DNA of 64,000 nt from an uncultured Pelagibacteraceae bacterium (GCA_902624455.1 CACNXQ010000003.1:39029-103028); one strand, 5' to 3'; positions 9,994 through 30,498 are shown, counted from the stretch's first letter. Program-made: numbers and translations. Notes: generated by a model not told the origin, from the sequence alone.

Positions 9994-12900
9994 ATGAGTA
10001 AAAAACTGATCCAAGCATTAGAACCACGAGTTATGCTCGATGGTGCCGCTGTAGCCACGGCATTGGATACAATCGATGAGCTCACTCAATCCAACAAAAT
10101 CGATGAGGGATCAGAAAATAAGAGTACTAAATTTAAAGCAGCTAGCGATACCAAACTTCCATTTGTGAATGGAATTGATGCAAGTCAAAATGCGAAGTCA
10201 CGACAAATTATTTTCATCGATAGTGCCGTTGAAGATATCGATACTCTTATAAACAGTTTTGATGCTCATGCAGAAGTTCATGTCATCCAAAGTGATCAAG
10301 ATGGATTTGTTGAAATTCAAAAAATTCTTTCAGATGAAACAAATGTAGATGCATTGCATATCATCGGTCACGGTAGTGTTGGACAAATCGCATTTGGAAC
10401 AGCTGTTTTAAATAGTGATACGTTAGATGCTTACGAAGATACACTCAAAACCATTGGTTTAAGTTTAAGCGAACAAGGGGACATTTTATTTTATGGTTGT
10501 AATGTTGCTGCCGATCAAAATGGTGAAATCTTAATTAATCAAATTGCGGATATTACGCAAGCAGATATTGCAGCATCAGATGATGTCACAGGTAAAGGTG
10601 GCGACTGGGATCTTGAAAAGCATACAGGTATTATTGAGGCCAATAATATTGATGTTGTAAATTATGAACACTCACTTGCAAATGGAGTAGCTTCAACTGA
10701 TTCATCAGTGGTTGAAATTCACGGTGCTACAAACTATGAGGCACGTTGGACTGACCCCACTAACCGTGACGGACAAATGGATCCAAGCTCCGATCGATTT
10801 ATTATTTCTCAAGAGAGAGCTGATGTAACAGGTGGAGCAGGGACTTTAAGTTTTGACGTTTCTGGTGCGAAAAGTTCGCATACACCAAGTACGAGTGAAC
10901 CAGTTCACGTGTATTTACTTTTCTCAAACGATAATACCGATAGCAACTCTCGTCGATCTGGCTCAAGAACAGGTGTCGTGACTTTTGAAAACGATATTTT
11001 GGGTGTCTTCACTAGCCCCTATAAAACCATTGCAATGACTGGGATTTCAAAACCAAACGCTTCATATCCAACGGCAACTTCGGATAAGATTGGAATGAGG
11101 GATTTAGAATATAAAAACGATAATGCTCCAGGACAGCAGGGGAATAAAGACTGGTTTAGAATTTACAATTCAAACAGGTCGATTGAAATTGGTACAAAAA
11201 ACGGACTTAAAGGTGACTTCATTCGTGTCATTACTAGAGCTCCGACTACAGTTGTGGTTGAAGGTAATAATGATGCGGGTTATATCAATGAAGACTCAGC
11301 ATTAAGTGTCACAAATGGTGCTAGTGCAAATGATAGCACGCCTGATACATCAGGAGAACATACAGGTGATGTATTGCTTAATGATACCGGGGGTAACGGA
11401 TCTGATTTATTTGTGAGTGCAATACAAGGAGGATCCGTTGGATCGCTAGTTGATGGTACGTATGGTCAACTAAGGCTCTTTTCGAATGGTTCATACACTT
11501 ACACGGCTAATAAAGATGCTGCTGACACACTTGATGACGGTGATACAGTAACTGACTCATTTACTTATACTGTTAGTGATGATGCAAATAATACCGATAC
11601 TGCAACCATTACAATTACTGTTAGAGGTATCAATGATCCGATTACCGCAGTTAATGACACAGATGCAGTATTTGAAGATCAAAGTATCAGCCGAGGGATT
11701 TCAAGTTCTAAGGAGTTAGATCATGACGATACCGATCCGGATGGTAGTGACTCATCTGGTAGTTTTACAATTACTGCAATCAGAACAGGAAGAGAGTCCT
11801 CAAGTAGCGGAAATGTAACTGGAACTGTTAACTCAGCTCTAAATGGTACTTATGGTGTTCTAACCGTAGGTTCAAACGGATCTTATTCTTATGCAGCCAA
11901 TAGAAGTGGAGCAGACGCGTTAGAAGCAGGTGCATCAGCTATTGATTACTTTACATATACCGTACAAGATCACAGCGGGGGTGACACGGATACAGCTGAG
12001 CTTGCAATTACTGTTACAGGTGTTGGACCAGGCGCTGTGAATGATACTGATACTGTTGCTGAAAATGGTTCCCTCAATCGTAATGCAGCCGCTGGAGTAT
12101 TGGACAATGATGATGATAGTGCTTCATTTGACCAAGAAAATTTAATTGTCACCAACATCACTTCAGATAGCACTGGTAATAGTGGGAATGCTACACAAGG
12201 TGTACTCGGAACCTACGGAACCTTAACAGTTGCAGAGGATGGTAGTTATACATATGTAGCAAATACTGCTGCTGCAGAAGCTTTAGCCGCTGGTGATAAC
12301 AGTCAAACCGATGTATTCACCTATACAGTAAAAGATGATAATGGCGTTAACGCAGATACTGCAACTCTAACCATTACGATACAAGGTCAAGACGATGATC
12401 CTGTCGCATCAGCAGACACAGGAACAGCTACTGAGGATGGTCCACAAGTTTCAGTGAGTGCTGCTAGCGGTGTTTTAGCCAATGATACTGATGTGGATGC
12501 TGGAGAAACGTTAGAGGTTTCAGCTGTTGGGGGTAATGGATCAGCCGTTGGCCAAAATGTTACAGGGTCTCTAGGAACTTTAAATTTAGATGCAGATGGA
12601 TCTTACACATATATTGCTGATCAAGCTGGTGCCGATGCAATTACCGCAGGACAAACTGCGACAGATACATTTAGTTACACCTTAACTGACGGTGAAGGGG
12701 AAACAAGCACGGTAAACCTAGTCATTACGGTTACAGGTAAAGGGCCAGAGGGTGTTGCGGACACAGCAACGGTAAATGAAAACTCAACAGTAGAGAAAAA
12801 CAACGCGGCTACTAATGGTGTATTAGCAAATGATGACGATAACGCATCATTTGATCAAGAAAGCCTTGCAGTAACTGCTATCACGGGAGCATCAGCCGGA

Positions 12901-15900
12901 ACAGTTGGTGGAACAACAGCTGGTACTCATGGTACTCTCACGATGAACCAAGATGGTACTTATTCTTATGCAGCAACTAACGATGCACTTGATGATGGAG
13001 AAACTGTTAATGATGTATTCACGTATACGGTTAAAGACGACGATGATAAAAACTCAAGCACCGCAACATTAACCATTGCAGTAACTGGAGTAAATGACCC
13101 AATTACCGCAGCTGACGATACAGATGGTGTTACGGCTGGGTCAACCATAACAAGAGATGAGGCATCAACCTTTGAGTTAGACCATGACGATACTGACCCT
13201 GATGGTGATGATGTGTCAGGTAACTTTACTATTACTGCTGTAACTCACGCTTCAGGAGATCTTACAGTTGGTCAACAATATACAACATCTAAAGGTAGAA
13301 TTACGATCAATTCAAACGGTTCATATACATATATAGCTGATCAAAGCGGTTCAACAGGCTTATCAAACGGTGCTCAAACAAATGACGTCTTTACATATAC
13401 AGTGAGAGATCACAGTGGAGGTGATACAGACACTGCAACACTTACAATTACAATTACAGGTTCAACTAATAATGCCCCTGTTGCTGATGACCCGGAAGTA
13501 GATGGCAATGCTGGAACGGGATACATCTTAGAAGATCAAACATTGACAGTTACGAATGGTTCTACTGGTGTAACTGGATCTGACAGCAATAATAATAACG
13601 AAACTGGAGACAATACAGGAGACGTTTTAAATAATGATACCGATGCAGATGGTGATCCACTTACTGTTTCTGCAATATCAGGTGGTTCTGTTGGTGCTGG
13701 AGGTGCCACAGGAACATATGGAACATTAACCATTCAAAGTGATGGTAGTTATACCTACAATGCAAATAATGCAAACTCGATAGCAAAAGATACTGAAGCA
13801 ACTGACGTTTTCACTTACACAGTCAGCGATGGCAATGGTGGTACAGATACTGCTACCATAACTATTACTATTTTAGGAGTAAATGATGCTCCAAGTGCAA
13901 GCAATGATACGAATGCTGTTGATGAAGATGCTACAGCATCCAAAAATGCCGGAGCGGGAGTACTGTCCAACGATAGTGATGCTGATACGGGTTCAAGTAT
14001 GACGGTGACTGCAATTACTGGAGTATCAGCGGGTTCGGTTAATGGAACAACAGATGGAACTTATGGTACTCTGACTCTTAATGATGACGGCAGTTATTCT
14101 TATACCGCCAATAAAGCTGCTGCAGACCAATTGGCACACAACGCTACGGCAAATGATGTCTTCACTTATACGGTCAAAGATAACGAGAACGCTACTGCTA
14201 CTGCAACTTTGACTATTGTGGTTACCGGTAAGGGACCTGTTGGTTCAGCTGACACTGCTTCAGTGAATGAAAATGTTTTACTTGAAAAGAATGAAGCAAG
14301 TGGTGTGCTAGCAAATGATAACGGTGGAGATACTGAGAATTTAATTGTTACTAACATTGAATCGAATGATACCAGTAATACCGGCACTGCAGGTCAAGGT
14401 GTTTTAGGAACCTATGGTACTCTCAATATTGCCTCTAATGGAAGCTATACGTATACACCAAATACGGCTGCTGCAGAAGCACTGGATCAAGGTGATGTCG
14501 TTTCAGAAGCCTTTACCTATACCGTAAAAGATGACAATGGTGTCAACTCAAGTACTGCTACCCTTACTATTACGGTAACCGGTGTGAACGATCCGATTGT
14601 AGCAGTTGACGATACCGACAGTGTTGATGAAGGTCAGAGAATAACAAGATTAATCAGTGATGATCAGGAACTTGATCACGATGACACGGATGTAGATACC
14701 GATGATGTGAGTGGAAGTCTTACGATTACAGATATCAGAACAGGTCCTAAGGATGGGACTGGCACCGATGGTTCTGTTAATGTGGCATTACAAGGTGAAT
14801 ATGGAACACTTACTGTACGCCCTAATGGGGGTTATACATACATTGCTGATCAAACAAAATCAGATGACTTGGTTACAGGTCAAACAGGAACAGATATATT
14901 CACTTACACAGTAAGTGACGGCACTGAAACATCGACAGCTCAACTTACTTTCACAGTAACTGGCGTCAACGATAATGACCCTGTTGCAGTGGATGATACA
15001 GATACGGTTAAACGTGATGCTTCAATAACTCGTGCTTCTGGATCTGCATTTGATATAGACTCAGATGATACAGATGCTGATGGAGAAACCCTAACCATCT
15101 CTGCAGTACGAACAGGTCAAGATGAAGGTGGAGGTAAAGGGGGCCCTGCTAGAGTTGGTAAAACACTTGTAGGCACATACGGTACTCTAACCTTGAATTC
15201 TGATGGTAGCTATACTTACGCAGCTGATCAGGATGCAGCGGATAGTCTGAAAAGGGGCGATAGTGCTATTGATTATTTCAACTATACAGTGACCGATGGA
15301 GAAAGAACAGACACAGGAGTAATTGCATTTACAGTTGAAGGTATCAGTGATCCACCTGAACCAGAAGATGATACCCTAGAGGTTGATGCAGGCGCAACGG
15401 CTACAAAGGATGCAACACAAGGCGTATTAAACAATGATAGTGACCCGGATGGAGATACCCTAATTGTTGATAGCATTAGAACGGGTCGAGAAAATAAAAC
15501 AGGTACATCTGGAACAGTTGGCACACCAGGAACAGATGGTACGCCTCTTACTGGCAGATATGGTGACTTAATAATGTATTCTGATGGTAGTTACGAATAC
15601 TCAGCAAATAATGCAAAATCATTAAATCCTGGTGAAACAGCAACAGAATATTTCACTTATACAGCATTTGACACTGATACTTCAGTTCCTGCCGAAATTG
15701 CAATTACGGTTACTGGTCAAAATGATCCACCTGAAGTCGTATTTCCTGTAAATGACCCGATAGTAGTAACAGGACAACAAATCAACATAAGACACAAACA
15801 AATTTTTGACGATCCTGACAGAGGCGCATTTGACATTACTGAATATAAAATTATCGATCCAGAAACAGAAGCAGAAACCAGTCTTCCAGAAGGACTTAGA

Positions 15901-17109
15901 TTAAAGCAAAATAAGTTACATGGAAGTATATCTACTCCTGGTATATATACGATTACTATAAGAGCAATTGATGGAGCTGGTTTATATGCTGATCATACCT
16001 TTACAATTACGGTTCGACCTGCGCCAGGTTTTTTCGCTGAAAATGAACCTATTTTTGAAGAATCATCAGTCAATATTGAACCATTGGTCATAAAGCCTAA
16101 GAAAGATTTCCTAGCAGCAGTCAAAGAGGCATTTAATGAAGGAACATCTAATATCTCTGATGATGGATTTAACTTGGATACCATTTCAATTGCTGACACT
16201 GCATCTCTATCTAAACCATTAAAATTTAATGGTGGCTTGAGATTGATGGACGCAGTCGCTAGTGATGTATCTGATATTGAAGGGGCAGACTTAAAAGTCG
16301 GTGTTAAATTAAATGATGACAACCAAAAAAATGTAGAGTCTTATTCAGGACAACTTTCTGATGGAAAAGCATTACCTGAGTGGATAAGTATCAATCCTGA
16401 AACAGGAGAGACAACTGCAGATATGCCAGATGGTGTTGACCAGGTAGAGGTTCAACTTGTCGCTCTAGATAAAGATGGAAATACAAGAGATATTAATATT
16501 GTTTTAGACAAAGCGAAAATTAAAAATGACCAAGACTTTACTCGAGGTACCGTTGGTCAAACACGAGTTGTTGTTGATAATGACTCTAATGTAAATCTTA
16601 TTCGAGAAAATAATGGTAACGTGAATAACACTGCTTCAAATAATTTGAATGCCGATGCAGACTTTGTTGGCAATATGAAATTAAGCTCACTTCAAATGGA
16701 CTCAGGTAAATTTACAATAGATATTATTGATGATAATCAGTCCAATGTGAAAGCTTATAAAGCTCAACTCAAAGATGGTAGCGCCTTACCTGATTGGGTT
16801 ACGATTGATCCTGAAACAGGAGCTATTTCTGCTGATCCATCTCTAAGTAAAACTGATGTTTCAGTACCTTCATTCATTGCAGATACTCCTACTATTCTAG
16901 AATTAAAGATAATAGCAGAAGATGAGGATGGAAATGAGAGAACAATTGAAGTTGAAATAAACCTTGATGAATTACCAGTTTCAGAAGATGATAGTGCTGA
17001 AAGCCCTGAAAATAATGAACTTTCTTTTATTCCATTAAACGAGCAATTGAAGAACCAAGCTCAACAATCAGATAGCTATGGCGAAAAAATTATGAGTCTT
17101 GTAAGCTAG
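9994..17109 (+). CDS. Giant repetitive surface/secreted adhesin-like protein (N-terminal DUF4347, 12 VCBS-type repeats, cadherin-like C-terminal modules)
   Basis: 2371 aa. N-terminus [14 protein letters not shown] followed by DUF4347-like [14 protein letters not shown]...[16 protein letters not shown]...[10 protein letters not shown]...GGDWDLE. 12 repeats of GTYGTLT..DGSYTY.AN..AADAL..G....DVFTYTV.D..G..[16 protein letters not shown]. C-terminal LPEG/LPEW/LPDW modules. Confidence 0.9.
11260..15735 (+). repeat. In-frame array of 12 diverged ~95-110-aa VCBS-type repeats inside the adhesin gene, with a higher-order pattern of alternating linker types
   Basis: I counted 12 FTYTV/FSYTL/FNYTV/FTYTA cores. 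Linker types recur: ELDHDDTD(P/V)D...FTIT (repeats 2, 6, 10), ANDDDxASFDQE(N/S)L.VT.IT (3, 5) and a related [17 protein letters not shown] linker (9). DNA copies are clearly diverged by eye, not recent duplicates. Confidence 0.85.
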
Positions 17110-17121
17110 TCTCATAAGGTC

Positions 17122-17844
17122 ATGAAAAAATTATATATTTTTTTGACAACGGTTTGTTGTTTTTTACTCATTTTTAAAAGTACTTTTGCCAATGAGTCCT
17201 CAACTCGTATTTTAGTTACGTCAACTGAAGAAGCAACTCTATCCAGCGAAATTGCAGCAAAAGTATTATCCATTCCGGTAAAGACGGGAAATTTATTCAA
17301 AGAGTCAGATCCACTGATTAAATTTGATTGTTCTTTTTTTGAAGCTCAAAAGGATGTGGTCGAGTCAGAATTAGAGAGTGCCAGGGTAACTCTTAAAAGC
17401 AATCAAGATCTTGTCTTGATGAGAGCAATTGGTGATTATGAAGTACAATTATCACAAATTGCAGTAGAGCAAGCTGAAGCTGAGTTAAAGATAGCTCAAC
17501 TTAATACAGATCGATGTATTATTCGAGCACCTTATGATGGTCGTATGTCTGATATCTTTGTGAATGAGTTTGAAAGCATTGAAAGACAACAGCCTCTCTT
17601 GAAAATCATTGGATCGGGTTCGCTAGAGGCTAAGTTAATGGTCTCGAGTAAATGGTTGTCATGGATAACCGTTGGGTATCCTATGCAAATTGTAATTGAT
17701 GAAAATGGTTTAATGTATCAAGCCAAAGTAAGTTCAATTGGTGCAAATATAGATCCAGTAAGCCAGACAATAGATATTACTGCAAAATTTGACGAAAATT
17801 ATGATACATTACTATCTGGAATGAGTGGGACGGCAACATTTTGA
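17122..17844 (+). CDS. Periplasmic adaptor (membrane fusion protein, HlyD/RND-adaptor-like), short form with signal peptide
   Basis: 240 aa. Signal-like MKKLYIFLTTVCCFLLIFKSTFA; lipoyl-like SSEIAAKVLSIPVKTGNLFKESDPLIKFD; coiled-coil; IIRAPYDGRMSDIFV hairpin-return motif. Starts 12 nt after the adhesin stop. Confidence 0.7.
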   Translation: MKKLYIFLTTVCCFLLIFKSTFANESSTRILVTSTEEATLSSEIAAKVLSIPVKTGNLFKESDPLIKFDCSFFEAQKDVVESELESARVTLKSNQDLVLMRAIGDYEVQLSQIAVEQAEAELKIAQLNTDRCIIRAPYDGRMSDIFVNEFESIERQQPLLKIIGSGSLEAKLMVSSKWLSWITVGYPMQIVIDENGLMYQAKVSSIGANIDPVSQTIDITAKFDENYDTLLSGMSGTATF

Positions 17845-19175
17845 GTGAAAACTCTTCTATAAAAATAGCAAGACTAATCACCCTTGAAAAAAAGTTCCGT
17901 ATGTCAGAGACTGAAACGGAGCTTGAATTTACATGTGTTAATGAATTACGAAGTATAATCGATTATAATTTTTTATTTCTTTTAACTAAATCAAATCTTA
18001 ACAAGTTAAAGGTCAAAGCTATCTCAGATATTTCTGTAGTAGATAGAACCGCTCCAGCAGTCACTTTTATCGAAACTCTAATAAAAAAAGACCTTATTCA
18101 AAGTGATGAAATATCAGAATTAAGTCTGAAAGATTTAGAGAATGAAACTGATATTGTATTACCAGAAAATTTTCCAAATGAATTTATCACCGTACCCCTG
18201 ACATCACCTACGAGGGGTAACATAGGTTATTGGGTTATGGTTCGATCTGAGCGTGCAACCAATACTGAACAAGAATTATTGTTACACATTTCAGAAACAT
18301 TTAGCCATGCACTAGGTTCGTTTACTTCAAAAAATTCAATAATGTCTTTCTTTCAAAAAGTATTTACTGGTTGGGTCAAATGGTTATTAATTACCGCTAT
18401 TGCTGCTGCAATGTTTATACCAATAAATATGTCTGCCTTAGCCCCTGTTGAAGTAATTGCAAAAGATCCATCGATCATTACATCCCCTGTTAACGGTGTT
18501 ATTGAAAAAGTATTAGTTAATACTAACGATCCAGTAAGTGTAGGAGATGATTTAGTTAAACTTGATGACTTAAATTTTAAAAACAATTATGAAATTTCTC
18601 TTCAAGAGCTTGAAGTCGCAGAAGCTGAATTGTTAAGAGTTAAGCAATCTTCTTTTACTAATCCTGACGATAAAGCTAAACTTGTGGAACTGTCAACTGA
18701 AGTAGGTTTGAAAAAGAAAGAAGCTGCGTATGCCAAAGAACAGTTAAATTATTCAGTCATTAGTGCTGAAACTAGAGGTGTTGCAGTAGTAGAAGACTCT
18801 ATCGATTGGCAGGGAAGGCCAGTCAGAATTGGTGAAAAGATTTTAACCATTGCTGATCCAACTCAAGTCGAGTTTCTGATTTTCTTACCGACTAAAGATT
18901 CTTTGTTAATTCAAGAGTCTGCAGAAGTTAAAGTATTCTTAGACAGTGATCCTCTTAATTCTTTAGATGCAGAAGTTATTAGAACTTCATACAAACCAGA
19001 ATTAACACCTGAAAATATTCTTGCTTACAGAATATATGCAAGTATTGAGGATGTGGCTCAAAATCCAAGAATAGGATTGAGAGGTACAGCCAAAATTTAT
19101 GGCGAAAAGACCAGTCTATTTTATTATCTTTTCAGGGTTCCTATCAATCTTACCCGACAATTTGTAGGTTTTTAA
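17841..19175 (+). CDS. HlyD-family membrane fusion protein with N-terminal cytoplasmic GAF-like domain
   Basis: 444 aa. TTG start overlaps the upstream stop (TTGA); alternative ATG at 17901. GAF-like ending ITVPLTSPTRGNIGYWVMVRSERATNTEQELLLHISETFSHAL; one TM (WVKWLLITAIAAAMFIPINM); then IITSPVNGVIEKVLVNTNDPVSVGDDLVKLDD plus a coiled-coil and beta-barrel region. Confidence 0.7.
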   Translation: MSENSSIKIARLITLEKKFRMSETETELEFTCVNELRSIIDYNFLFLLTKSNLNKLKVKAISDISVVDRTAPAVTFIETLIKKDLIQSDEISELSLKDLENETDIVLPENFPNEFITVPLTSPTRGNIGYWVMVRSERATNTEQELLLHISETFSHALGSFTSKNSIMSFFQKVFTGWVKWLLITAIAAAMFIPINMSALAPVEVIAKDPSIITSPVNGVIEKVLVNTNDPVSVGDDLVKLDDLNFKNNYEISLQELEVAEAELLRVKQSSFTNPDDKAKLVELSTEVGLKKKEAAYAKEQLNYSVISAETRGVAVVEDSIDWQGRPVRIGEKILTIADPTQVEFLIFLPTKDSLLIQESAEVKVFLDSDPLNSLDAEVIRTSYKPELTPENILAYRIYASIEDVAQNPRIGLRGTAKIYGEKTSLFYYLFRVPINLTRQFVGF

Positions 19176-21281
19176 ATGTTAACACCATTTATCAGACAAG
19201 ATCTTAAACTAAGCAAAGGACCAAAAAAAGAAGATGGTTCTTCAACATGGCTCCTCTACGATGCATTAAGAAACAAATATTTCTCCATCAATAAAAAGGC
19301 TTTTGATTTATTAAGCAACTGGACTGGTGGACAAAAGATGGATGAGTTTATTGTGAAGATGCAATCAATTAATGCATCAATACGTGACGATGAAATAAAA
19401 GACTTTGCTAACTTCTTAAATATTAATAATTTGACTACCAAGAAAACTCAAGACGAAGTCAAATCTCTAGTAGTACAAAAAAATAAATTAAATAAGCATT
19501 GGCTACTTAAACTTGTGCATAATTATCTTTTCTTCAAAATCCCTTTTTTTAGACCAGGCAGTTGGCTAGAAACAACCTTGCCGTATGTATCTGTATTAGG
19601 ATCCAGACTGGTTAGAAACATTATTTACATCTTAGGACTGATTGGTATTTATTTAACAATCTCAAATTATGAAACATTTTTAAATACGTTTTCATATTTC
19701 TTTAATTTAAATGGTTTAATATTTTATATTCTCACCATTATTGTGATTAAAGCATTGCATGAATTAGGGCATGCTTACGTAGCTACATACTATAAATGTA
19801 ACGTATCCTCCATCGGTCTTGCAATGCTGGTATTCTTTCCATTTTTATACACAGATACATCTGATGCTTGGAAACTAACAGATCACCGAAAACGATTACT
19901 GATTAATTTTGCAGGCATGCTGACAGAATTACACATCGCACTGATTGCAACGTTTGCTTGGGCCATCATACCAGAAGGTATTTTAAAAAGCGCAGCTTTC
20001 TTTATAGCAACTTCAAGTTGGATATCCTCTCTCCTTATAAACATAAGTCCGTTCATGAGATTTGATGGCTACTATGTATTATCTGATTATTTAAAAGCCG
20101 ATAACTTACAACCAAGATCCTTTGAATTAGGGCGATGGCAGTTAAGAGAATGGATTTTTGGTTTTAAATTTCAACCCCCTGAGCAGCTGATGAGCAATAG
20201 AAGATGGACGTTTATTATTTATGCATGGTCTACGTGGCTCTATCGGTTCTTTATCTTCATTGGTATTGCATTATTGGTCTATTACTTAACATTTAAAGTG
20301 CTAGGGATAATCTTATTCATTATTGAAATTGTTTGGTTCATCCTTCTTCCAATTTACAGGGAAGTGAAGCGGTGGTGGGGATTGCGTAAATCTATGACAG
20401 TCAATAGAACCTCAATGAGGTCTTTAAGTCTATTTTGTATTTTATTAGTGGCTCTCTTTATACCTTGGAGAACTTCTCTTAGTTTACCAGCAGTTATTGA
20501 GAAAGAAGCTGTGATTGATATTTTTCCACCTGAGGACTCGATGATTAAAAACATTTTTATTGATAATAATCAGATCGTAAAGAAAGGAGATTTATTAATT
20601 AGATTTACTAATCCTTACTTAGCAACTCAAGTTGAACAGGCAATTGATCGTGTAAAACTGATACAAAAGAAACTGGATCGAAGAATAGGATCTGAGTTGG
20701 ATATGAGTAATTTAATGGTTCTAGAAAACCAACTAAAAAAAGAACTGGAAGTACTCAATAATTTAAAAGAACAAAGTAAGGAATTAACAATTTATGCTAA
20801 CCAGGACTCAACTGTTGTAGATTTAAAATATCTTGAGAACAATCAATGGGTCAGTCAGAATGATAAGTTGTTCTCACTAATAGAATCTGGAAATTCTCAA
20901 GTTATTGCATATGTCAATGAGACAGACCTAAATAAAATTAAAAGTAAGAGCACAGGGGTCTTTTTTTCAAAAAATAATGAATATTCAAATATTGAAGTTC
21001 AATTAAGAGATCTTAATGAAACATCTACTGAAGAACTGCCTTACTTATCACTCACATCTTCTTATGGCGGTCCTATTGCAACAAGAGAAGTTGAAGGCAA
21101 AAAAACTTCGCAACGCCCTGAAAAAGCACTTTACCAAGTAAATTTTCAAACTCTCTCACAACACAGCGATCTTCAATGGGAAACGCCTGGAGTCGTTAAA
21201 TTAAAAAGTGAGAATTACAATGTATTTCAAAACCTCTTCAATTTAGTAACATCAACCCTAATTCAAGAAAGTGGTTTTTAA
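19176..21281 (+). CDS. Site-2 protease (peptidase M50) / membrane-fusion-protein chimera with PqqD-like N-terminal domain
   Basis: 701 aa. ATG directly abuts the upstream TAA. N-terminus WLLYDALRNKYFSINKKAFDLLSNWTGGQKMDEF (PqqD-like). HELGH at nt 19758-19772 and NISPFMRFDG at nt 20040-20069 lie within multi-TM segments. C-terminal MIKNIFIDNNQIVKKGDLLIRF plus long coiled-coil and TVVDL (HlyD-like). Confidence 0.8.
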   Translation: MLTPFIRQDLKLSKGPKKEDGSSTWLLYDALRNKYFSINKKAFDLLSNWTGGQKMDEFIVKMQSINASIRDDEIKDFANFLNINNLTTKKTQDEVKSLVVQKNKLNKHWLLKLVHNYLFFKIPFFRPGSWLETTLPYVSVLGSRLVRNIIYILGLIGIYLTISNYETFLNTFSYFFNLNGLIFYILTIIVIKALHELGHAYVATYYKCNVSSIGLAMLVFFPFLYTDTSDAWKLTDHRKRLLINFAGMLTELHIALIATFAWAIIPEGILKSAAFFIATSSWISSLLINISPFMRFDGYYVLSDYLKADNLQPRSFELGRWQLREWIFGFKFQPPEQLMSNRRWTFIIYAWSTWLYRFFIFIGIALLVYYLTFKVLGIILFIIEIVWFILLPIYREVKRWWGLRKSMTVNRTSMRSLSLFCILLVALFIPWRTSLSLPAVIEKEAVIDIFPPEDSMIKNIFIDNNQIVKKGDLLIRFTNPYLATQVEQAIDRVKLIQKKLDRRIGSELDMSNLMVLENQLKKELEVLNNLKEQSKELTIYANQDSTVVDLKYLENNQWVSQNDKLFSLIESGNSQVIAYVNETDLNKIKSKSTGVFFSKNNEYSNIEVQLRDLNETSTEELPYLSLTSSYGGPIATREVEGKKTSQRPEKALYQVNFQTLSQHSDLQWETPGVVKLKSENYNVFQNLFNLVTSTLIQESGF

Positions 21282-21287
21282 AAATAA

Positions 21288-23324
21288 TTAATGCTTAGAA
21301 ACTAGATTTACGAGAAAAGCATTATCCAAAGCACTTTCTTCTAACGCATTTAACCGTCCACTTTTACCAGCATGCCCGCCAACCAGATTCATTTTCATGA
21401 GTATCGGATTATCTGACGTTGAATTTTCTCTTAGTTTTGGAACATATTTTGCAGGTTCATAGTACTGAACTTGTGAGTCATAAAGGCTCGATGTGACAAG
21501 AACTGCTGGATAATTAGACGGTTTGATATTGTCATACGGTGAATAGCTTTTGATGTAGTCATATTCTTCTTTATTGGCTGGATTGCCCCATTCTTTGTAC
21601 TCAAATGTTGTTAAAGGTATCGATTCGTCAGACATGGTGGTTAAAACATCTACAAATGGAACAGCAGAAATAATTCCCGTATACAGTTCTGGTTCCATGT
21701 TGATCACTGCTCCCATTAAAAGACCTCCTGCACTGCCGCCCATTGCGAATACACATTTGCTGTCACCGTATCCCCTCTCAATCAATGATTTGGTGGCATC
21801 AATAAAATCATGAAAGGTATTTTTTTTATTTAAAATTTTACCATCGTCATACCATTGACGTCCCATCTCAGATCCACCTCTAATGTTTGCAACAGCAAAA
21901 ATAAAACCTCTGTTCAATAAAGGAAGAATTGAAGTTCTAAATGCAGCATCTATGATAATGCCATAAGATCCATAACCATAAACAAGAATAGGAGCATTTT
22001 TTAAATCGACACCTTTCTTATAAACTAAAGATACAGGTACTTTTGTATCATCCCGAGCATGAATTTTCAGTCTTTCCACATCGTATAAGCTTTCGTCATA
22101 ATTACTCACCAATTGTTGCCATGCCAAATCACTTTTACCAGTTTGAATATTCTCTTTGAAAATTGAACTAGGCTTTTTTGGACTTGAATAGCCATAGTAA
22201 AATTCTGTGTCAAGATAATCGTTATTGGTAGCTAGATAACAAGAAAACGCAGGCTCACTAAACTCAATGTATTGTCTATCAAGCGACTTTCTATGTATTT
22301 TTAAAATTTTGGGTAAGCCATCTTCTCTAATCTCTAAATATAAATATTCAGGAAAAGCAATAAAGTCTTCGATTAAAATCTTACTATCGTGTTCAATCAC
22401 CGTTTCCCAGCTATCGTAGTTATTAATTTGGTCGAGATTAAATTTTAGGATTTCAAAGTTTTTTTTGTCATTTTTATTACTGCTTGCATAAAAACATTCA
22501 GGTGTATCTTCGATAGAATAAAGATGTTTTTCCGATCTTTCTAAAACGCAGAAAGGCTTACTATTTTCATCGTCTAAATCAAGCAACCATGTTTCGGATG
22601 CTTCAGTCTTGCTACTATAGATGTTAAGATATTTTTTTGTTCTAGACTCAAAAATATGTAAATGAAATTCTGTGTCCTTTTCTTCGTATATTAGAATGTC
22701 TTCTTTTGTATCAGTGCCTACTTTGTGTTTAAACACTTTATTTTCAATTAAGGTAACAGGATCTTTGAGAGCGTAATAAATCGTGTCATTGTTTTTGTTC
22801 CACACCACACTGCCCGATGATCTTTGAATACTTTCGTCAATTATTTGACCTGTTTCTAAATTCTTTATCTTTATATTGTACTCTCTCCGTCCTGATAAAT
22901 CTTCGGCATAAGCTATATAATGATTATTTGGTGAAGGTGTAATGGAGGCCACATTAAAATAATCTAAATCTTTTGCTAACTCATTTACATCAAGGACTAA
23001 TTCTTTGTTTCTATTTATTTCACGATAATATGTTTTGTATTGTTGATCTGAACTGATCTCTGAAAAATAATAATAATCACCATACTTAACCTTCATTGAA
23101 ACTTCATGTGGTGGAATAAAGCTAACTAATTCATCGTAGATCTCTTTTCTACAATCGTTCTTACTTTCAAACCAAGACTCCAGGTATTTATTTTCAGCTT
23201 CTAAATAGGAGATAACCTCAGGATTTTTGCGAGTATCGTCTCTCAGCCAATAGTAATCATCAATACGTTCATCACCGTGAGCGGTATGGATCTTTGGAAT
23301 TTTTTTTGGCTGAGGAGGTTTCAT
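21288..23324 (-). CDS. ptrB: Oligopeptidase B / prolyl oligopeptidase family S9A serine protease
   Basis: 678 aa. N-terminus HGDERIDDYYWLRD; catalytic-domain GGSAGGLLMG nucleophile elbow; C-terminal GGHAG. Confidence 0.85.
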   Translation of the reverse strand: MKPPQPKKIPKIHTAHGDERIDDYYWLRDDTRKNPEVISYLEAENKYLESWFESKNDCRKEIYDELVSFIPPHEVSMKVKYGDYYYFSEISSDQQYKTYYREINRNKELVLDVNELAKDLDYFNVASITPSPNNHYIAYAEDLSGRREYNIKIKNLETGQIIDESIQRSSGSVVWNKNNDTIYYALKDPVTLIENKVFKHKVGTDTKEDILIYEEKDTEFHLHIFESRTKKYLNIYSSKTEASETWLLDLDDENSKPFCVLERSEKHLYSIEDTPECFYASSNKNDKKNFEILKFNLDQINNYDSWETVIEHDSKILIEDFIAFPEYLYLEIREDGLPKILKIHRKSLDRQYIEFSEPAFSCYLATNNDYLDTEFYYGYSSPKKPSSIFKENIQTGKSDLAWQQLVSNYDESLYDVERLKIHARDDTKVPVSLVYKKGVDLKNAPILVYGYGSYGIIIDAAFRTSILPLLNRGFIFAVANIRGGSEMGRQWYDDGKILNKKNTFHDFIDATKSLIERGYGDSKCVFAMGGSAGGLLMGAVINMEPELYTGIISAVPFVDVLTTMSDESIPLTTFEYKEWGNPANKEEYDYIKSYSPYDNIKPSNYPAVLVTSSLYDSQVQYYEPAKYVPKLRENSTSDNPILMKMNLVGGHAGKSGRLNALEESALDNAFLVNLVSKH

Positions 23325-23365
23325 TTATGTCTAATATATTACTGATATGTGTTTCTTCAATCTAG

Positions 23366-23439
23366 TGGTGCCCCTAGCTGGTTACGCTCCAGCGGCTGAT
23401 CATTACCAATGACCTGCTTTACTATTAAGCGATAGGGGC
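23366..23439 (-). tRNA. Atypical tRNA-like gene; cloverleaf with Thr (GGU) anticodon but non-canonical D- and T-loops
   Basis: Minus-strand 74 nt: GCCCCTA TC GCTT AATAGTA AAGC A GGTCA TTGGTAA TGATC AGCC GCTGG AGCGTAA CCAGC TAGGGGC A CCA. All four stems pair perfectly (one G:U). The T-loop is AGCGTAA instead of TTCRANN, and the 7-nt D-loop has no GG. Confidence 0.5.
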
Positions 23440-23455
23440 GAGATGTCTCTAAGTA

Positions 23456-23857
23456 TCAAGAACACCAGTCTTTTTTATTGCCTCGTTCATATACTACACC
23501 CAGATTATTGCTTCTAATTTTAGCTGATGCATCATCACCATCAATAATTAAATATCCTAACGTTCTTCCAAAATAATCTTTTTCATAATCAGTTTTAATT
23601 TCAACTGATGAGGCATTAGCGATAAGATTGTTAAGATAATCTCTAGCCTCTAAGCCAAGCTCAAGCTCTGCTTCACATTTGGGTTTAGATATTTCAGGAG
23701 TATCAAGCTCTAATAATCTAATCTTGGCTTTAGTGCCATCAATCATGACATAGCATGTGTCACCATCATAGCAGTATTGCCCGTTGTATTGACGCAATGC
23801 TATTTCAGCTTCGGCTAAAGTCACCATGCTAAAAAATAGTAAGATTAGATGTTTCAT
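23456..23857 (-). CDS. Secreted thermonuclease (staphylococcal nuclease, SNase-like) family protein
   Basis: 133 aa. Signal peptide MKHLILLFFSMVTLAEA; SNase-like KIRLLELDTPE ... DYFGRTLGYLIIDG. Confidence 0.7.
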   Translation of the reverse strand: MKHLILLFFSMVTLAEAEIALRQYNGQYCYDGDTCYVMIDGTKAKIRLLELDTPEISKPKCEAELELGLEARDYLNNLIANASSVEIKTDYEKDYFGRTLGYLIIDGDDASAKIRSNNLGVVYERGNKKDWCS

Positions 23858-23932
23858 TTTAATAAACTATAAATCTTGTTTTTATATGACAAACCCATTA
23901 GAAGACAATCAATATTATTTTATCACTCATCA

Positions 23933-25756
23933 ATGACATCAAAACTAAGGAACATTGCAATTATTGCCCACGTGGATCACGGCAAAACCACCTTGATTGA
24001 CTCTTTAATGAAACAAACAGGTATGTTTCGAGAAAATCAAAATGTAGACGAACGACTTATGGACTCTGGTGATCTTGAAAAGGAAAGAGGTATTACTATT
24101 TTAGCAAAACCAACCTCAATTGTTTGGAAAGATGTTCGAATAAATATTATTGATACCCCTGGACATGCTGATTTTGGTGGCGAAGTTGAGAGAGTTCTTG
24201 GTATGGCCGATGGTGTGATCATACTAGCGGATGCTGCTGAAGGTCCGATGCCGCAAACAAAGTTTGTACTAGGAAAAGCTCTTGCCCAAGATCTAAAACC
24301 CATTGTAGTTATTAATAAAGTTGATCGCCATGATGCTCGCTCAGAAGAAGTGGTTAATGAGGTATTCGATCTTTTCGTAGCATTGGATGCAAGTGAAGAG
24401 CAATTAGATTTCCCAATATTGTATGCAGCAGGCAGAGAAGGTTGGTGTGTCAAAGATTTAAACGATTCACGAGAAAATTTGCATCCTTTACTTGATTTAA
24501 TCTTGGCCCATGTTCAAGAACCTAATGTTGATTTAAATAAGCCGTTTGCCATGCTTGCTACACTTCTTGACTCAGATCCGTATCTTGGAAGATGTTTAAT
24601 TGGACGAGTGATCAATGGATCTGCAAAGGTAAACGATCAGGTCAAGTCTATTAATCTAAGGGGTGAGCAAATTGAAAATGGAAGATTAACTAAGTTATTT
24701 ACTTTTAGGGGTACGGATAGGGTTCCTGTGGAGCAGGTCACAGCAGGAGATATTATTTGTATCGCCGGTTTAGCAGTGACTTCTGTGGCAGATACCGTAT
24801 GTGACCCAACAGTTACTGATCCTCTCAATTCCACTCCGATCGATCCACCGACAATGTCAGTTACTATAACAGTAAATGACTCACCCTTTGCGGGCATAGA
24901 TGGGAAAAAAGTAACTTCTACATTAATTCGTGAGAGGCTTTTGCAAGAAGCGGAAACCAATGTTGCGATTACATTTGAAGAAAATGATCAAAAGGATGCT
25001 TTTGAAATTGGTGGAAGAGGAGAATTACAGATTGGAGTTTTAATAGAACAAATGAGACGTGAAGGATTTGAATTATCAGTATCCCGACCGAAAGTATTAT
25101 TTAAAGTAGATGAGAATGGAGCCAAAACTGAACCCATAGAAGAAGTTATAATTGATGTCGACGATGAATTCACAAGCACAGTAGTCGATGGCATGAACCA
25201 AAGAAAAGCAGATATGCAAGATATGCGAGCTTCAGGAGCCGGCAAAACTAGACTTACATTTTTAGCACCGTCTCGTGGTTTAATTGGATATCAAAATAAA
25301 TTTCTAACAGATACAAAAGGTACAGGAGTTCTAAATAGACTGTTCAACAAATATGACGCTTATAAAGGCAACATCATTGGTCGTAAGTACGGTGCACTGA
25401 TTTCAACTGATACAGGATCTGCTGCAGCATACGCAATTTTTAATTTACAGGACCGTGGTGTGATGTTCATAGGCCATCAAACAAAAGTATATACCGGCAT
25501 GGTAGTAGGGGAGCATAGTCGAGATAATGATCTTGAAATAAATGTTATTAAAGGAAAACAACTTACCAATGTAAGAGCTTCTGGAACAGATGAGGCCGTT
25601 AGATTGACGCCACCTAGAAATATGTCATTAGAGGAAATGATGGCCTATATTAATGAGGATGAGCTCTTAGAAGTGACACCAAATAATTTAAGACTTAGAA
25701 AACGATATCTCTCTGCTGTAGAGCGTAAACGTGATAAAAAATCAAAATCTTTATAA
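23933..25756 (+). CDS. typA: Translational GTPase TypA/BipA
   Basis: LRNIAIIAHVDHGKTTL, DTPGHADFGGEVER, NKVDR. Full-length BipA-like C-terminus. Start moved from the track TTG (23876) to ATG 23933 (MTSKLRNIAII). Confidence 0.95.
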   Translation: MTSKLRNIAIIAHVDHGKTTLIDSLMKQTGMFRENQNVDERLMDSGDLEKERGITILAKPTSIVWKDVRINIIDTPGHADFGGEVERVLGMADGVIILADAAEGPMPQTKFVLGKALAQDLKPIVVINKVDRHDARSEEVVNEVFDLFVALDASEEQLDFPILYAAGREGWCVKDLNDSRENLHPLLDLILAHVQEPNVDLNKPFAMLATLLDSDPYLGRCLIGRVINGSAKVNDQVKSINLRGEQIENGRLTKLFTFRGTDRVPVEQVTAGDIICIAGLAVTSVADTVCDPTVTDPLNSTPIDPPTMSVTITVNDSPFAGIDGKKVTSTLIRERLLQEAETNVAITFEENDQKDAFEIGGRGELQIGVLIEQMRREGFELSVSRPKVLFKVDENGAKTEPIEEVIIDVDDEFTSTVVDGMNQRKADMQDMRASGAGKTRLTFLAPSRGLIGYQNKFLTDTKGTGVLNRLFNKYDAYKGNIIGRKYGALISTDTGSAAAYAIFNLQDRGVMFIGHQTKVYTGMVVGEHSRDNDLEINVIKGKQLTNVRASGTDEAVRLTPPRNMSLEEMMAYINEDELLEVTPNNLRLRKRYLSAVERKRDKKSKSL

Positions 25757-28775: not shown

Positions 28776-29246
28776 TTACCAATCAAAGAAGCCATGAGTT
28801 CCGGTTTCTCCTCTATAGAACTCAATATCATTTGCATATAAAGCATAACCAACAACAGCGAGTTCATCAAAATCTTGGTTTTCTATCTTTAATGTTCCTG
28901 TTACATACACGGGTTCCCACCATTCAATAGCATCCCATGGTTTTTTGGAGTCAACATATACTATCTGATTAGGAGGTGGTGGGGGAACATGAATACAAGC
29001 TCCAATATAAGGAACAAGAAGAAACGTATTTATTTCTCTTCCGTAATATTCTAAAGGAATCACGTAACCAGGCAATTTCACTTCTTTATCTTCTAAACTT
29101 TTATTAAATTTTACTTCATCTGGAGAAAAAACAGTTGTCCAAGGAATCAAGTCATCCCAGTCAATGACCTTAGGGGAACCGAAAGACATAGTGATAAAAA
29201 GAAATAAGAAAAGAGCAGTAAGAATTTTAAGTTTAAATATTTTCAT
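28776..29246 (-). CDS. zrgD: DUF3299-family periplasmic protein (ZrgD-like)
   Basis: Start set at ATG 29246 (MKIFKLKILTALFLFLFITMSFG signal), sharing 1 nt with the permease stop. CIHVPPPPPNQ motif. Sits downstream of the FtsX-type ABC pair, as in Zrg loci. Confidence 0.65.
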   Translation of the reverse strand: MKIFKLKILTALFLFLFITMSFGSPKVIDWDDLIPWTTVFSPDEVKFNKSLEDKEVKLPGYVIPLEYYGREINTFLLVPYIGACIHVPPPPPNQIVYVDSKKPWDAIEWWEPVYVTGTLKIENQDFDELAVVGYALYANDIEFYRGETGTHGFFDW

Positions 29247-30496: not shown

Positions 30497-30498
30497 GA

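Follow-up and report, generated by a model that had tools for sequence, protein, structure and literature searches.

What does a marine bacterium do with a protein that joins an apparent peptide-recognition domain, an intramembrane site-2 protease (S2P) and a periplasmic adaptor in a single polypeptide? Such a protein is encoded on a 64,000-nucleotide stretch of DNA (hereafter, the window) from an uncultured Pelagibacteraceae bacterium (GCA_902624455.1, CACNXQ010000003.1:39029-103028). An earlier note on this DNA described it as a chimera and proposed that it couples substrate cleavage to handover to an outer-membrane duct. We examined the domains of the protein, its relatives and its genomic context. 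The answer that we favor, at a probability of roughly 0.55, is that this fusion protein forms the core, at the inner membrane, of a dedicated apparatus, coupled to TolC, by which a giant adhesin encoded three genes upstream is both processed and exported.

Domain architecture of the fusion protein

Both signatures of S2P proteases are intact in the 701-residue frame and lie where the earlier note had placed them: HELGH at residues 195-199 (nucleotides 19758-19772) and NISPFMRFDG, which conforms to NxxPxxxxDG, at residues 289-298 (nucleotides 20040-20069). The Pfam family Peptidase_M50 (PF02163) matches above its gathering score (37.9 bits; cut-off 27.2). Among 146 family members, clustered at no more than 50% identity, residues H195, E196, H199, N289 and D297 are invariant, while P292 occurs in 145 of them and G298 in 144. 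The proposed M50/S2P core therefore holds, and homologs retain its catalytic residues; given this conservation, the reading frame is not a chance one. The hydrophobic helix at residues 172-199 carries HELGH at its inner end, and N289 closes the next-but-one hydrophobic helix, as judged from hydropathy and an AF2 model. Loops of the membrane region assigned to the inside contain 5, 8 and 5 lysine plus arginine residues, as compared to 0, 0 and 1 for those assigned to the outside. Hydropathy and the positive-inside rule thus agree on the topology that had been anticipated, with a cytoplasmic N-domain and a periplasmic C-domain, and the protein is predicted to be oriented N-in, C-out and to carry out intramembrane proteolysis. 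The full-length AF2 model, built from 24 close sequences, is only of moderate quality (pLDDT 67.9), and a whole-protein phmmer search of the PDB returned only SpoIVFB (E 0.4).

The N-terminal ~95 residues had been likened to PqqD; the string quoted for them (WLLYD...) begins at residue 25. This likeness is not apparent in the sequence of the fusion protein itself. Even with the threshold relaxed to E<=10, Pfam PqqD (PF05402) had no match in the fusion protein or in the 61 type-1 N-domains searched, for which Pfam returned only scattered weak winged-helix matches, and a PDB sequence profile search with the N-domains gave nothing relevant. The fold and the homologs, however, do support it. An AF2 model of residues 1-108 built from 61 sequences (pLDDT 90.1, pTM 0.76) shows the order β1β2β3α1α2α3, with a winged-helix-like β3α3, strands at residues 11-14, 25-29 and 34-38, and helices at residues 40-47, 55-65 and 71-83. 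It supersedes the N-domain of the full-length model (pLDDT 41-73), which drew β2 as a helix and was rejected as wrong. In a Foldseek search of the PDB with the N-domain, the nine best matches were all RiPP recognition elements (RREs), those of TbiB1 (5v1u/5v1v), CteB (5why/5wgg) and lasso B1 (6jx3), with probabilities of 0.92-1.00 but modest E-values (4e-3 to 5e-2) and TM scores of 0.5-0.68. A Methylosinus homolog with the same three-part architecture (24% identical), named 'PqqD family protein' by PGAP, scores 28.7 bits with Pfam PqqD (cut-off 23.4), and a distant Pseudosulfitobacter homolog scores 22.8 bits, below that cut-off. In the 146-member alignment, the conserved N-domain residues fall in the β2-β3 turn, in β3 and at the end of α3. 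Together, the model and the homologs support an RRE fold, which would imply a specific peptide ligand.

The C-terminal portion is a HlyD-type adaptor, as the earlier note had supposed. HlyD_3 matches above its cut-off (32 bits; cut-off 22.2), HlyD_D23 also matches, and Foldseek aligned the domain with MacA (3fpp/5nik, 2.3e-11), EmrA (8zal, 9e-11), ZneB (3lnn, 1.8e-10) and MexA (1vf7), within an E-value range of 2e-11 to 1e-7 and at TM scores of 0.4-0.58 relative to the target. A Biotin_lipoyl_2 match at residues 454-477 (E 7.9e-4, below its cut-off) overlaps IKNIFIDNNQIVKKGDLLIRF (residues 457-477), the segment previously quoted as a lipoyl-like hairpin. The supposed long coiled coil is instead a short α-hairpin of two helices of ~24 residues each (residues 480-503 and 510-533).

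Rather than being a one-off chimera, the protein belongs to a large conserved family comprising 10,686 clusters at the 50% identity level, of which the best 150 are nearly all ~700 residues long and match from end to end. A profile scan of genome contigs (alignment A1) gave 80 best loci that all belong to Pelagibacterales; the wider taxonomic breadth described below was taken from a plasmid collection and contig look-ups. Relatives do carry only generic names, such as 'putative peptide zinc metalloprotease' at JGI. A literature search found no description of the fusion protein or of its export system, and 'M50' matches in two efflux reviews proved to be false.

A five-gene cassette with a giant adhesin

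The fusion gene is the last of five genes that are found together, following those for a TolC-like lipoprotein, a giant adhesin, a 240-residue adaptor and a 444-residue adaptor (Table 1).

Table 1. Features of the fusion gene and its cassette, with positions counted from the first nucleotide of the window.
Feature	Position	Strand	Details and basis
TolC-family outer-membrane factor, 941 aa	6983..9808	-	Pfam OEP 1.6e-32, He_PIG 9.7e-6
Giant repeat adhesin, presumed substrate, 2371 aa	9994..17109	+	12x Cadherin_4/Big_9/VCBS repeats, DUF4347
N-terminal leader motif of giant (aa 8-19)	10015..10050	+	NCBIfam LEPR-XLL NF012209
DUF4347 domain of giant	10207..10644	+	Pfam 7.8e-48; HIxxHG, GDILxYGC conserved (alignment A4)
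C-terminal tail of giant (…MSLVS)	17023..17106	+	Alignment of giant C-termini
Short periplasmic adaptor, 240 aa	17122..17844	+	N-terminal signal peptide; RND_mfp, HlyD_3
444-aa adaptor	17841..19175	+	HlyD_3 1.3e-12; alignment A3
RRE–S2P–adaptor fusion gene	19176..21281	+	701 aa ORF
RRE/PqqD-like domain, predicted cytoplasmic	19176..19499	+	aa 1-108; AF2 + Foldseek
Seven-helix membrane region with S2P core	19605..20471	+	aa 144-432; hydropathy, Pfam M50
Periplasmic adaptor domain	20472..21278	+	aa 433-701; lipoyl-like strands, short α-hairpin (480-533), β-barrel

The TolC-like gene, which provides the cognate outer-membrane factor of the fusion protein, is divergent from the giant gene. In its product, a lipoprotein signal (…LILLGC) precedes OEP and He_PIG Ig-like domains and then an acidic linker; the C-terminal domain appears SPOR-like by eye. 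The 240-residue adaptor, which is common to all cassettes, matches TIGR01730 RND_mfp at 102.3 bits (cut-off 94.9) and HlyD_3 at 1.2e-15. The 444-residue adaptor consists of a conserved cytoplasmic N-domain of ~170 residues, one transmembrane helix (~residues 178-200) and a periplasmic part of HlyD type; searches of Pfam and the PDB gave no match for its N-domain, which also shows no likeness to the RRE profile. These genes are tightly packed, with 12 nt between the giant stop codon and the 240-residue adaptor gene, a 4-nt overlap between the two adaptor genes, and 0 nt between the latter of these and the fusion gene. A promoter and terminator scan gave fewer sites than in shuffled sequence.

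The cassette was present in every Pelagibacterales locus with sufficient flank (82 loci examined), always with the TolC-like gene upstream of the giant and transcribed divergently from it; in other taxa the TolC-family gene sits within the cassette. IncF plasmids of E. coli and plasmids of Citrobacter also carry the cassette, as do Azospirillum, Variovorax, Kosakonia, Eleftheria, Luteibacter and Enterobacter. Among 5,426 complete E. coli genomes, 24 carry it, mostly on plasmids; plasmid NZ_CP081687 and strain MS 115-1 (NZ_CP146666) are examples. The E. coli giant is an Ig-like protein of 4,459 residues whose leader contains LESRQLFDGAA, and IS elements flank the five genes of the E. coli copy. 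Forty of the 45 plasmid records listed as matching at least 90% of the fusion-protein query also rank among the 60 best records for the giant N-terminus. Gene order with the giant is strict across more than ten genera. This order argues against a signalling or housekeeping protease (e.g., for anti-sigma RIP or remnant-peptide clearance) that became fused to an efflux adaptor by chance and is untied to the adhesin. The S2P proteases RseP and SpoIVFB work in signalling, and the weak PDB match to SpoIVFB would fit such a role; sigma and anti-sigma genes are absent from the cassettes, though, and the RRE domain points to a specific peptide ligand, such that we consider this explanation very improbable.

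No ABC, RND or MFS transporter was found within the cassette in any taxon examined, including the IS-flanked plasmid copies. Nearby transporters were limited to a convergent T1SS pair in Phyllobacterium, taken up below, and an apparently unrelated MacB-type ABC pair located 8 kb away in the window. The latter was considered as a motor and set aside, as it is absent from cassettes elsewhere.

The giant protein begins with a leader in which a basic stretch precedes, and an Ala-rich patch follows, a match to the NCBIfam model LEPR-XLL (NF012209; 17.0 bits for the full protein and 21.9 bits for the first 80 residues, with a cut-off of 17). In nearly every cassette with a readable first gene, the substrate starts with LE[PASQ]Rx[ML][LF]D[GA]A which, judged by its sequence, is a divergent form of NCBI's LEPR-XLL motif. 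This leader stands at the start of the first cassette gene in eight genera, including those with a distant second cassette type. The pattern LE[PASQ]Rx[MLIV][LFM][DS][GA] gave 37 matches in 1.99 Mb of loci, as compared to 0-1 in reversed or shuffled sequence, and all 35 of the matches listed fall at the N-terminus of a giant. Giants of E. coli, Variovorax and Eleftheria are below detection with the LEPR-XLL model, and type-2 giants score 31-34 bits. In the cassettes of Magnetospirillum pMSR-1 and of a Phyllobacterium plasmid, the preceding proteins are without the leader. Overall, the cassette is tied to the leader motif across three proteobacterial classes. We found no paper that ties the LEPR-XLL motif to a processing or export system. 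The inferred coupling of cleavage to duct handover gains support from the TolC-family gene in each complete cassette and from the adjacent leader-bearing giant.

The DUF4347 domain of the giant, for which no PDB match was found, was ruled out as a cassette-linked feature: many plasmids encode DUF4347 proteins without a fusion-protein match (e.g., 40 Phaeobacter records), and it is not essential to the cassette, because the Eleftheria giant keeps the leader and lacks DUF4347. The C-terminal tail shares with giants of other genera the motif φ-F/L-x-x-Q-φ and a helix that comes after it, and is a candidate second recognition signal.

By analogy to type I secretion, the real secretion signal could be this shared C-terminal tail. 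Ordinary type I secretion would have the giant exit C-terminus first via a remote HlyB-like ABC exporter, with the fusion protein acting as adaptor and leader peptidase, much like the C39 peptidase domain in bacteriocin exporters. The conserved helical tail would suit this explanation, as would the 4-5 GGxGxD repeats near the C-terminus of type-2 giants, a Vibrio LEPR-XLL giant that bears C-terminal RTX and serralysin domains (PMC10868602), and an incomplete Phyllobacterium copy with a convergent T1SS ABC/HlyD pair ~3 kb away. However, type-1 giants lack RTX repeats (in the giant of the window, GGxGxD occurs once, outside the last 999 residues), and an ABC exporter is absent within ~10 kb of the cassette in SAR11, E. 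coli, Kosakonia, Azospirillum, Variovorax, Eleftheria, Luteibacter and Enterobacter. Moreover, the IS-bounded E. coli unit brings its own TolC and three adaptors. We therefore regard ordinary type I secretion as an unlikely account of the cassette.

A possible route for processing and export

These observations point to a probable role for the fusion protein as the core of a machine for export and processing that has yet to be described and that operates without an ATPase. Specifically, we infer that the cytoplasmic RRE (residues 1-108) binds the basic stretch and motif of the giant's N-terminal leader, in the manner of RiPP recognition elements that bind precursor leaders, and that the S2P active site, at the cytoplasmic end of helices 2 and 4, removes this leader, with the cut probably falling within the Ala-rich patch after the motif. 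The fused adaptor, the membrane-anchored 444-residue adaptor and the soluble 240-residue adaptor would bridge to the TolC-like lipoprotein. The unfolded adhesin would cross the inner membrane through the fusion complex and exit via a single envelope-spanning duct. With no ATPase in the cassette, the proton-motive force might supply the energy, or the cadherin/VCBS repeats might do so as they fold outside the cell. To our knowledge, no known protein translocon consists of an S2P protease and adaptors alone.

The same components could be arranged for anchoring and release, following the logic of LapA/LapG: at the inner membrane, the RRE would hold the leader of an adhesin threaded through TolC until a regulated S2P cut frees the adhesin from the cell surface. 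The fusion of a leader-binding domain and a protease to a TolC-docking adaptor accords with this possibility, and the conserved cytoplasmic domain of the 444-residue adaptor could sense a signal. In Enterobacter hormaechei, a CSS-motif EAL gene follows the cassette and GGDEF/EAL genes are nearby. Yet domain searches revealed no c-di-GMP-binding domain among the cassette proteins, regulators of the EAL/GGDEF type are absent near the SAR11 loci, and crossing of the inner membrane is left unexplained. We judge anchor-and-release to be improbable, to about the same degree as ordinary type I secretion.

A broader form of the export reading, which we advance only tentatively and at less than even odds, is that the cassette represents an unrecognised ATPase-independent secretion pathway of diderm bacteria. 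In such a pathway, the RRE would be the receptor for LEPR-type leaders, borne by proteins that range in length from 2,000 to more than 16,000 residues, S2P domains arranged in a ring would be both leader peptidase and inner-membrane gate, and the three adaptors would lead to TolC; it would be the main route of surface-protein export in SAR11 and would be mobile on enterobacterial plasmids. If the export model holds, the RRE, a domain thought specific to small-peptide natural-product biosynthesis, would also be a secretion-leader receptor for bacterial proteins that rank among the largest, and TolC-dependent export would proceed without an ABC, RND or MFS motor, raising the question of how translocation is powered. 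A function would also be provided for thousands of genes named 'HlyD family efflux transporter periplasmic adaptor subunit'. Pelagibacterales are the most abundant bacteria in the sea and, having streamlined genomes, retain few envelope systems. Because the cassette is conserved throughout this order, the giant and its exporter are probably important for SAR11 surface biology, with possible roles in, for example, particle contact or interactions with phages or grazers. The E. coli plasmid cassettes render the hypothesis testable in a tractable host.

Relationship to known systems

The closest characterised relative of the fusion protein is the daptide protease MpaP, described as a site-2 protease with an RRE fused to its N-terminus, on which its removal of the leader depends (Ren et al., doi 10.1101/2023.03.08.531785). 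The NCBIfam model daptide_HExxH (NF041824) aligns residues 23-399 of the fusion protein with model positions 17-371 of 379 (E 4.7e-39), at 134.6 bits, far under the 300-bit equivalog cut-off, and Streptomyces mpaP genes match residues 20-374 at 22% identity. Both proteins thus place an N-terminal RRE before an M50 core, whereas MpaP is without the adaptor domain, resides in Gram-positive hosts and acts on short peptides with an ELExMEAP leader rather than on a presumed giant adhesin. The aminotransferase, methyltransferase and decarboxylase neighbors of a daptide cluster are absent around the fusion gene. That MpaP acts on small peptides, together with the JGI family label, could suggest an exporter that matures a small unannotated RiPP or bacteriocin, with the giant as a mere neighbor. 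This appears to be the least probable of the explanations considered: modification enzymes are absent, the spacing of the genes leaves no space for a conserved small open reading frame, and the partner conserved across classes is the leader-bearing giant gene and not a small gene.

Type I systems (HlyBD-TolC, LapBCE, SiiCDF) resemble the cassette in that the gene for a giant repeat adhesin lies next to those for HlyD-type adaptors and a TolC-family channel. Bacteriocin exporters of the C39-peptidase ABC type carry a leader peptidase fused to an export component, as is predicted here. The cassette nevertheless falls outside type I secretion, taken as an ABC exporter that works with an adaptor and TolC on a substrate bearing an RTX-type signal at its C-terminus: it contains no ABC transporter and its type-1 giants no RTX repeats, it has three adaptors instead of one, its peptidase is an intramembrane metalloprotease, and its conserved signal is an N-terminal LEPR-type leader, not a double-glycine leader.

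With RseP, SpoIVFB and mjS2P, the fusion protein shares HExxH and NxxPxxxxDG motifs within membrane helices. In the canonical S2P orientation, the HExxH helix runs from outside to inside and is followed by a β-hairpin; hydropathy, the model and the loop charges suggest the same direction and a subsequent β-hairpin for the fusion protein. Those proteases carry PDZ or CBS accessory domains where the fusion protein has an RRE and an adaptor, and S2Ps cut membrane-anchored regulators, whereas the presumed substrate here is the leader of a soluble giant protein.

The adaptors MacA, EmrA, ZneB and MexA/AcrA share the fold of residues 433-701 and the HlyD_3 match. Pump adaptors have a lipid or one helix as their membrane anchor, whereas that of the fusion protein is covalently joined to a seven-helix protease domain and is without a cognate ABC, RND or MFS pump. 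Protease fusions are not mentioned in a review of adaptor proteins from 2026 (PMC13328181). Finally, the adjacent giant resembles LEPR-XLL proteins (NF012209) in bearing their motif at or just above the cut-off, but differs in that type-1 leaders form a divergent subclass, LE[PASQ]Rx[ML][FL]D[GA]A.

Domain architecture of the fusion protein

The 701-aa fusion protein was described in an earlier note as a chimera, but its architecture is that of a family. Searched exhaustively with HMMER, 1.84 billion representatives yielded 10,686 clusters at E<=1e-3, of which 2,749 reached E<=1e-30; the best 150 are, with few exceptions, ~700 aa long and align end to end. The two site-2 protease (S2P) motifs, HELGH and NISPFMRFDG, lie where they had been placed (residues 195-199 and 289-298). 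Pfam returned Peptidase_M50 (37.9 bits, cut-off 27.2) and HlyD_3 (32 bits, cut-off 22.2); matches to HlyD_D23 and to Biotin_lipoyl_2, the latter spanning lipoyl-like strands already pointed out, were under their cut-offs. The top NCBIfam match was the daptide intramembrane metalloprotease (NF041824), with residues 23-399 aligned to positions 17-371 of the 379-position model at E 4.7e-39 and 134.6 bits, under the 300-bit equivalog cut-off. H195, E196, H199, N289 and D297 were invariant in 146/146 relatives checked, and P292 and G298 nearly so. As had been supposed, every source's name for the protein is generic ('site-2 protease family protein', 'HlyD family efflux transporter periplasmic adaptor subunit', 'putative peptide zinc metalloprotease protein').

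The proposed likeness of the N-terminal domain to PqqD stood at the level of fold, but not as a sequence call for this protein. Neither it nor a single one of 61 diverse N-domains from homologs matched PqqD in Pfam, and a PDB sequence search with the N-domain found no match. The AF2 model of residues 1-108, computed from the 61-sequence alignment (pLDDT 90.1, pTM 0.76), has strands at 11-14, 25-29 and 34-38, helices at 40-47, 55-65 and 71-83, and an additional helix. Its top nine Foldseek matches in the PDB were all RiPP recognition elements (RREs), namely lasso-peptide TbiB1 with leader peptide (5v1u, 5v1v), sactisynthase CteB (5why, 5wgg) and lasso B1 (6jx3), with E 4e-3 to 6e-2, probability 0.92-1.00 and TM 0.59-0.68, the last relative to stand-alone lasso RRE targets. 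The daptide protease MpaP, of the family that the NCBIfam model stands for, is described as having an RRE joined N-terminally to a site-2 protease that cleaves off the leader (doi 10.1101/2023.03.08.531785). A Methylosinus homolog, 24 % identical and of the same three-part architecture, matches Pfam PqqD (28.7 bits, cut-off 23.4) and is named 'PqqD family protein' by PGAP. RREs hold the leader strand at the β2-β3 turn, β3 and the α3-end region; conserved positions of this family map to the β2-β3 turn and β3 (D29, P30, R32-N33-R/K-Y/F-F36) and to the α3 end (F80, L81, N84, L86). The predicted fold does support assignment of this domain as RRE/PqqD-like.

Hydropathy and the full-length model place seven helices within residues 144-432. 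Lys+Arg counts are 5, 8 and 5 in loops assigned to the cytoplasm and 0, 0 and 1 in those assigned to the periplasm; given these charges and an adaptor domain that is necessarily periplasmic, the topology is N-in, C-out, with a cytoplasmic RRE. Helices 2 and 4 are predicted to carry HELGH and N289, respectively, at their cytoplasmic ends, so that the predicted S2P orientation is canonical. Residues 433-701 match MacA, EmrA, ZneB and MexA in Foldseek (E 2e-11 to 1e-7), which bears out a HlyD-like adaptor; the 'long coiled coil' ascribed to it is, in the model, a short α-hairpin of two helices of ~24 residues each. The earlier note had named three observations that would speak against its reading; instead, both motifs are placed within the membrane region, AF2 and Foldseek show a winged-helix-like N-domain, and homologs keep the catalytic residues.

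Within helices 5-6, R357, K374 and E384 are charged and invariant in the family alignment. A salt bridge or proton-relay site formed by the three is conceivable, and they are, speculatively, candidate proton-coupling residues.

The cassette and its distribution

The window comes from a member of Pelagibacterales (SAR11). Of the four plus-strand genes of the cassette, the second starts after a gap of 12 nt, the third overlaps the second by 4 nt, and the fourth follows the third with 0 nt between them. No ABC, RND or MFS transporter was found in the gene cluster of the window. That the system exports small peptides seems barely credible, as the cassette contains neither small ORFs nor modification enzymes.

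Features of the cassette and its surroundings in the window
Feature	Position	Strand
TolC-family lipoprotein, additional Ig-like domain	6983-9808	-
Adhesin, 2371 aa, DUF4347 and 12 cadherin/VCBS repeats	9994-17109	+
DUF4347 (adhesin residues 72-217)	10207-10644	+
Tail motif (adhesin residues 2344-2371)	17023-17106	+
Secreted adaptor, 240 aa	17122-17844	+
444-aa adaptor, conserved ~170-aa cytoplasmic domain of unassigned fold	17841-19175	+
N-domain of 444-aa adaptor (residues 1-175)	17841-18365	+
Fusion protein, 701 aa	19176-21281	+
HELGH	19758-19772	+
NISPFMRFDG	20040-20069	+
MacB-type ABC system	28776-31185	-

The TolC-like protein is unusually long (941 aa), with a lipobox (LLGC), an OEP domain, a He_PIG Ig-like domain and a long acidic linker; by eye only, its C-terminal ~80 aa resemble a peptidoglycan-binding SPOR domain. 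The N-domain of the 444-aa adaptor shows a GAF-like pattern by eye in its alignment; neither Pfam nor the PDB gave a match to it, and it is unlike the RRE profile. The MacB-type system, 8 kb downstream of the cassette, comprises a 416-aa FtsX + MacB_PCD permease, a 228-aa ATPase and a 169-aa ORF; no such pair was found beside cassettes of other taxa, and it is not conserved with the cassette.

Gene set and order were identical in every Pelagibacterales locus with sufficient flank (82 loci examined). The same genes occur on E. coli IncF and Citrobacter plasmids, on the Luteibacter chromosome, and in Azospirillum, Kosakonia, Eleftheria, Enterobacter hormaechei and Variovorax, where the giant adhesin exceeds 16,000 aa; outside Pelagibacterales the TolC gene lies within the cassette in nearly every case. 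The E. coli copy, a five-gene unit flanked by IS elements, is present in 24 of 5,426 complete genomes. Among the 45 listed plasmid records with a near-full-length fusion-protein match (at least 90 % of the query), 40 also featured in the top 60 records for the N-terminus of the giant. It is very improbable, in our estimate, that the fusion protein is a signalling protease unrelated to the adhesin.

A second, distant cassette type, on Pseudosulfitobacter and Methylosinus plasmids, has the order LEPR-XLL giant, ~620-aa adaptor, PqqD-M50-HlyD protein, 'prepilin peptidase' and short adaptor. In Methylosinus the short adaptor is followed by a TolC gene, which closes the cassette; the Pseudosulfitobacter stretch has no annotated TolC gene. 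The giants are ~8,800-12,900 aa with RTX-like repeats, and the 'prepilin peptidase' is unusually long (640-675 aa), optionally preceded by SapC.

In Enterobacter hormaechei a CSS-motif EAL phosphodiesterase gene directly follows the cassette, with GGDEF/EAL genes nearby (12125-13696 and 18124-22121 on the fetched contig), which hints at c-di-GMP control of the adhesin system in enterobacteria. Small 'tail fiber protein' genes, which lack the leader motif described below, flank the cassette in two unrelated genera, Kosakonia (three in tandem, locus 22125-24232) and Azospirillum (one, locus 4374-4501).

The leader motif of the giant adhesins

The giants start with a basic stretch followed by a conserved leader motif, which occupies 12 residues in the window's giant and reads ALEARYMFDAAA in Variovorax, ALESRQLFDGAA in E. 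coli, ALEPRFMFDAAG in Azospirillum, SLEPRMLFDGAI in Kosakonia and ALEARLMFDAAA in Eleftheria. Across 1.99 Mb of retrieved loci a regular expression for it found 37 matches, where reversed or shuffled control sequence gave 0-1, and 35/35 of the matches listed lie at the N-terminus of a giant. The motif is a divergent form of NCBI's LEPR-XLL, scoring 17-22 bits in the window's giant (cut-off 17) and 31-34 bits in the second cassette type. DUF4347 was rejected as a cassette-linked feature, since the Eleftheria giant keeps the leader and lacks DUF4347; it is the leader that travels with the cassette. The motif is absent from the proteins preceding the Magnetospirillum pMSR-1 cassette (a 492-aa ELWxxDGT repeat protein, locus 14499-15977) and the Phyllobacterium cassette (a HrpK-domain protein, locus 13788-18026), the latter having no annotated TolC or short-adaptor gene; these cassettes may have degenerated, or the gene for their substrate may lie at another locus.

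A His (HIxxHG) and a Cys (GDILxYGC) are conserved in the DUF4347 alignment, and ADxAAS.D.TG..GGDW.LE comes after them. Together the His and Cys recall a caspase/CHAT-type catalytic dyad, an analogy by which the domain might process itself; DUF4347 had no match in the PDB by sequence.

A tail motif at the C-terminus, φ-F/L-x-x-Q-φ and then an amphipathic stretch (for example PVFSMQLQQL), is common to giants of different genera. It may serve as an additional recognition signal, read perhaps by the 444-aa adaptor through its cytoplasmic domain. This shared tail would also suit transport by a remote ABC exporter, with the fusion protein merely peptidase and adaptor; we regard that as unlikely, the plasmid cassettes being self-contained.

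A proposed route of export

Our preferred reading, to which we assign a probability of roughly 0.55, is that RRE, S2P site and adaptors act in succession on the adhesin. The cytoplasmic RRE would dock the leader; the S2P site would remove it at the inner leaflet, probably within the Ala-rich patch after the motif; and the unfolded adhesin would be passed to the TolC-like channel by the fused adaptor together with the two accessory ones. The analysis establishes the domain identities, the cassette, its association with the leader and the lack of a neighbouring transporter; leader binding, cleavage, translocation path and energy source are what we infer for this machine. A Lap-like anchor-and-release device is an improbable alternative.

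We found no description of the fusion protein or export system in the literature, and a 2026 review of adaptor proteins (PMC13328181) is likewise silent. The parts are of known kinds; their combination, without an ATPase and linked to a leader at the N-terminus of giant adhesins, is undescribed. That the cassette constitutes a distinct secretion pathway we suggest only tentatively. We class the system with TolC-dependent tripartite export, as a variant without an ATPase, and the logic of the proposed machine would be like that of signal peptide, receptor and signal peptidase, with parts drawn from RiPP and efflux systems.
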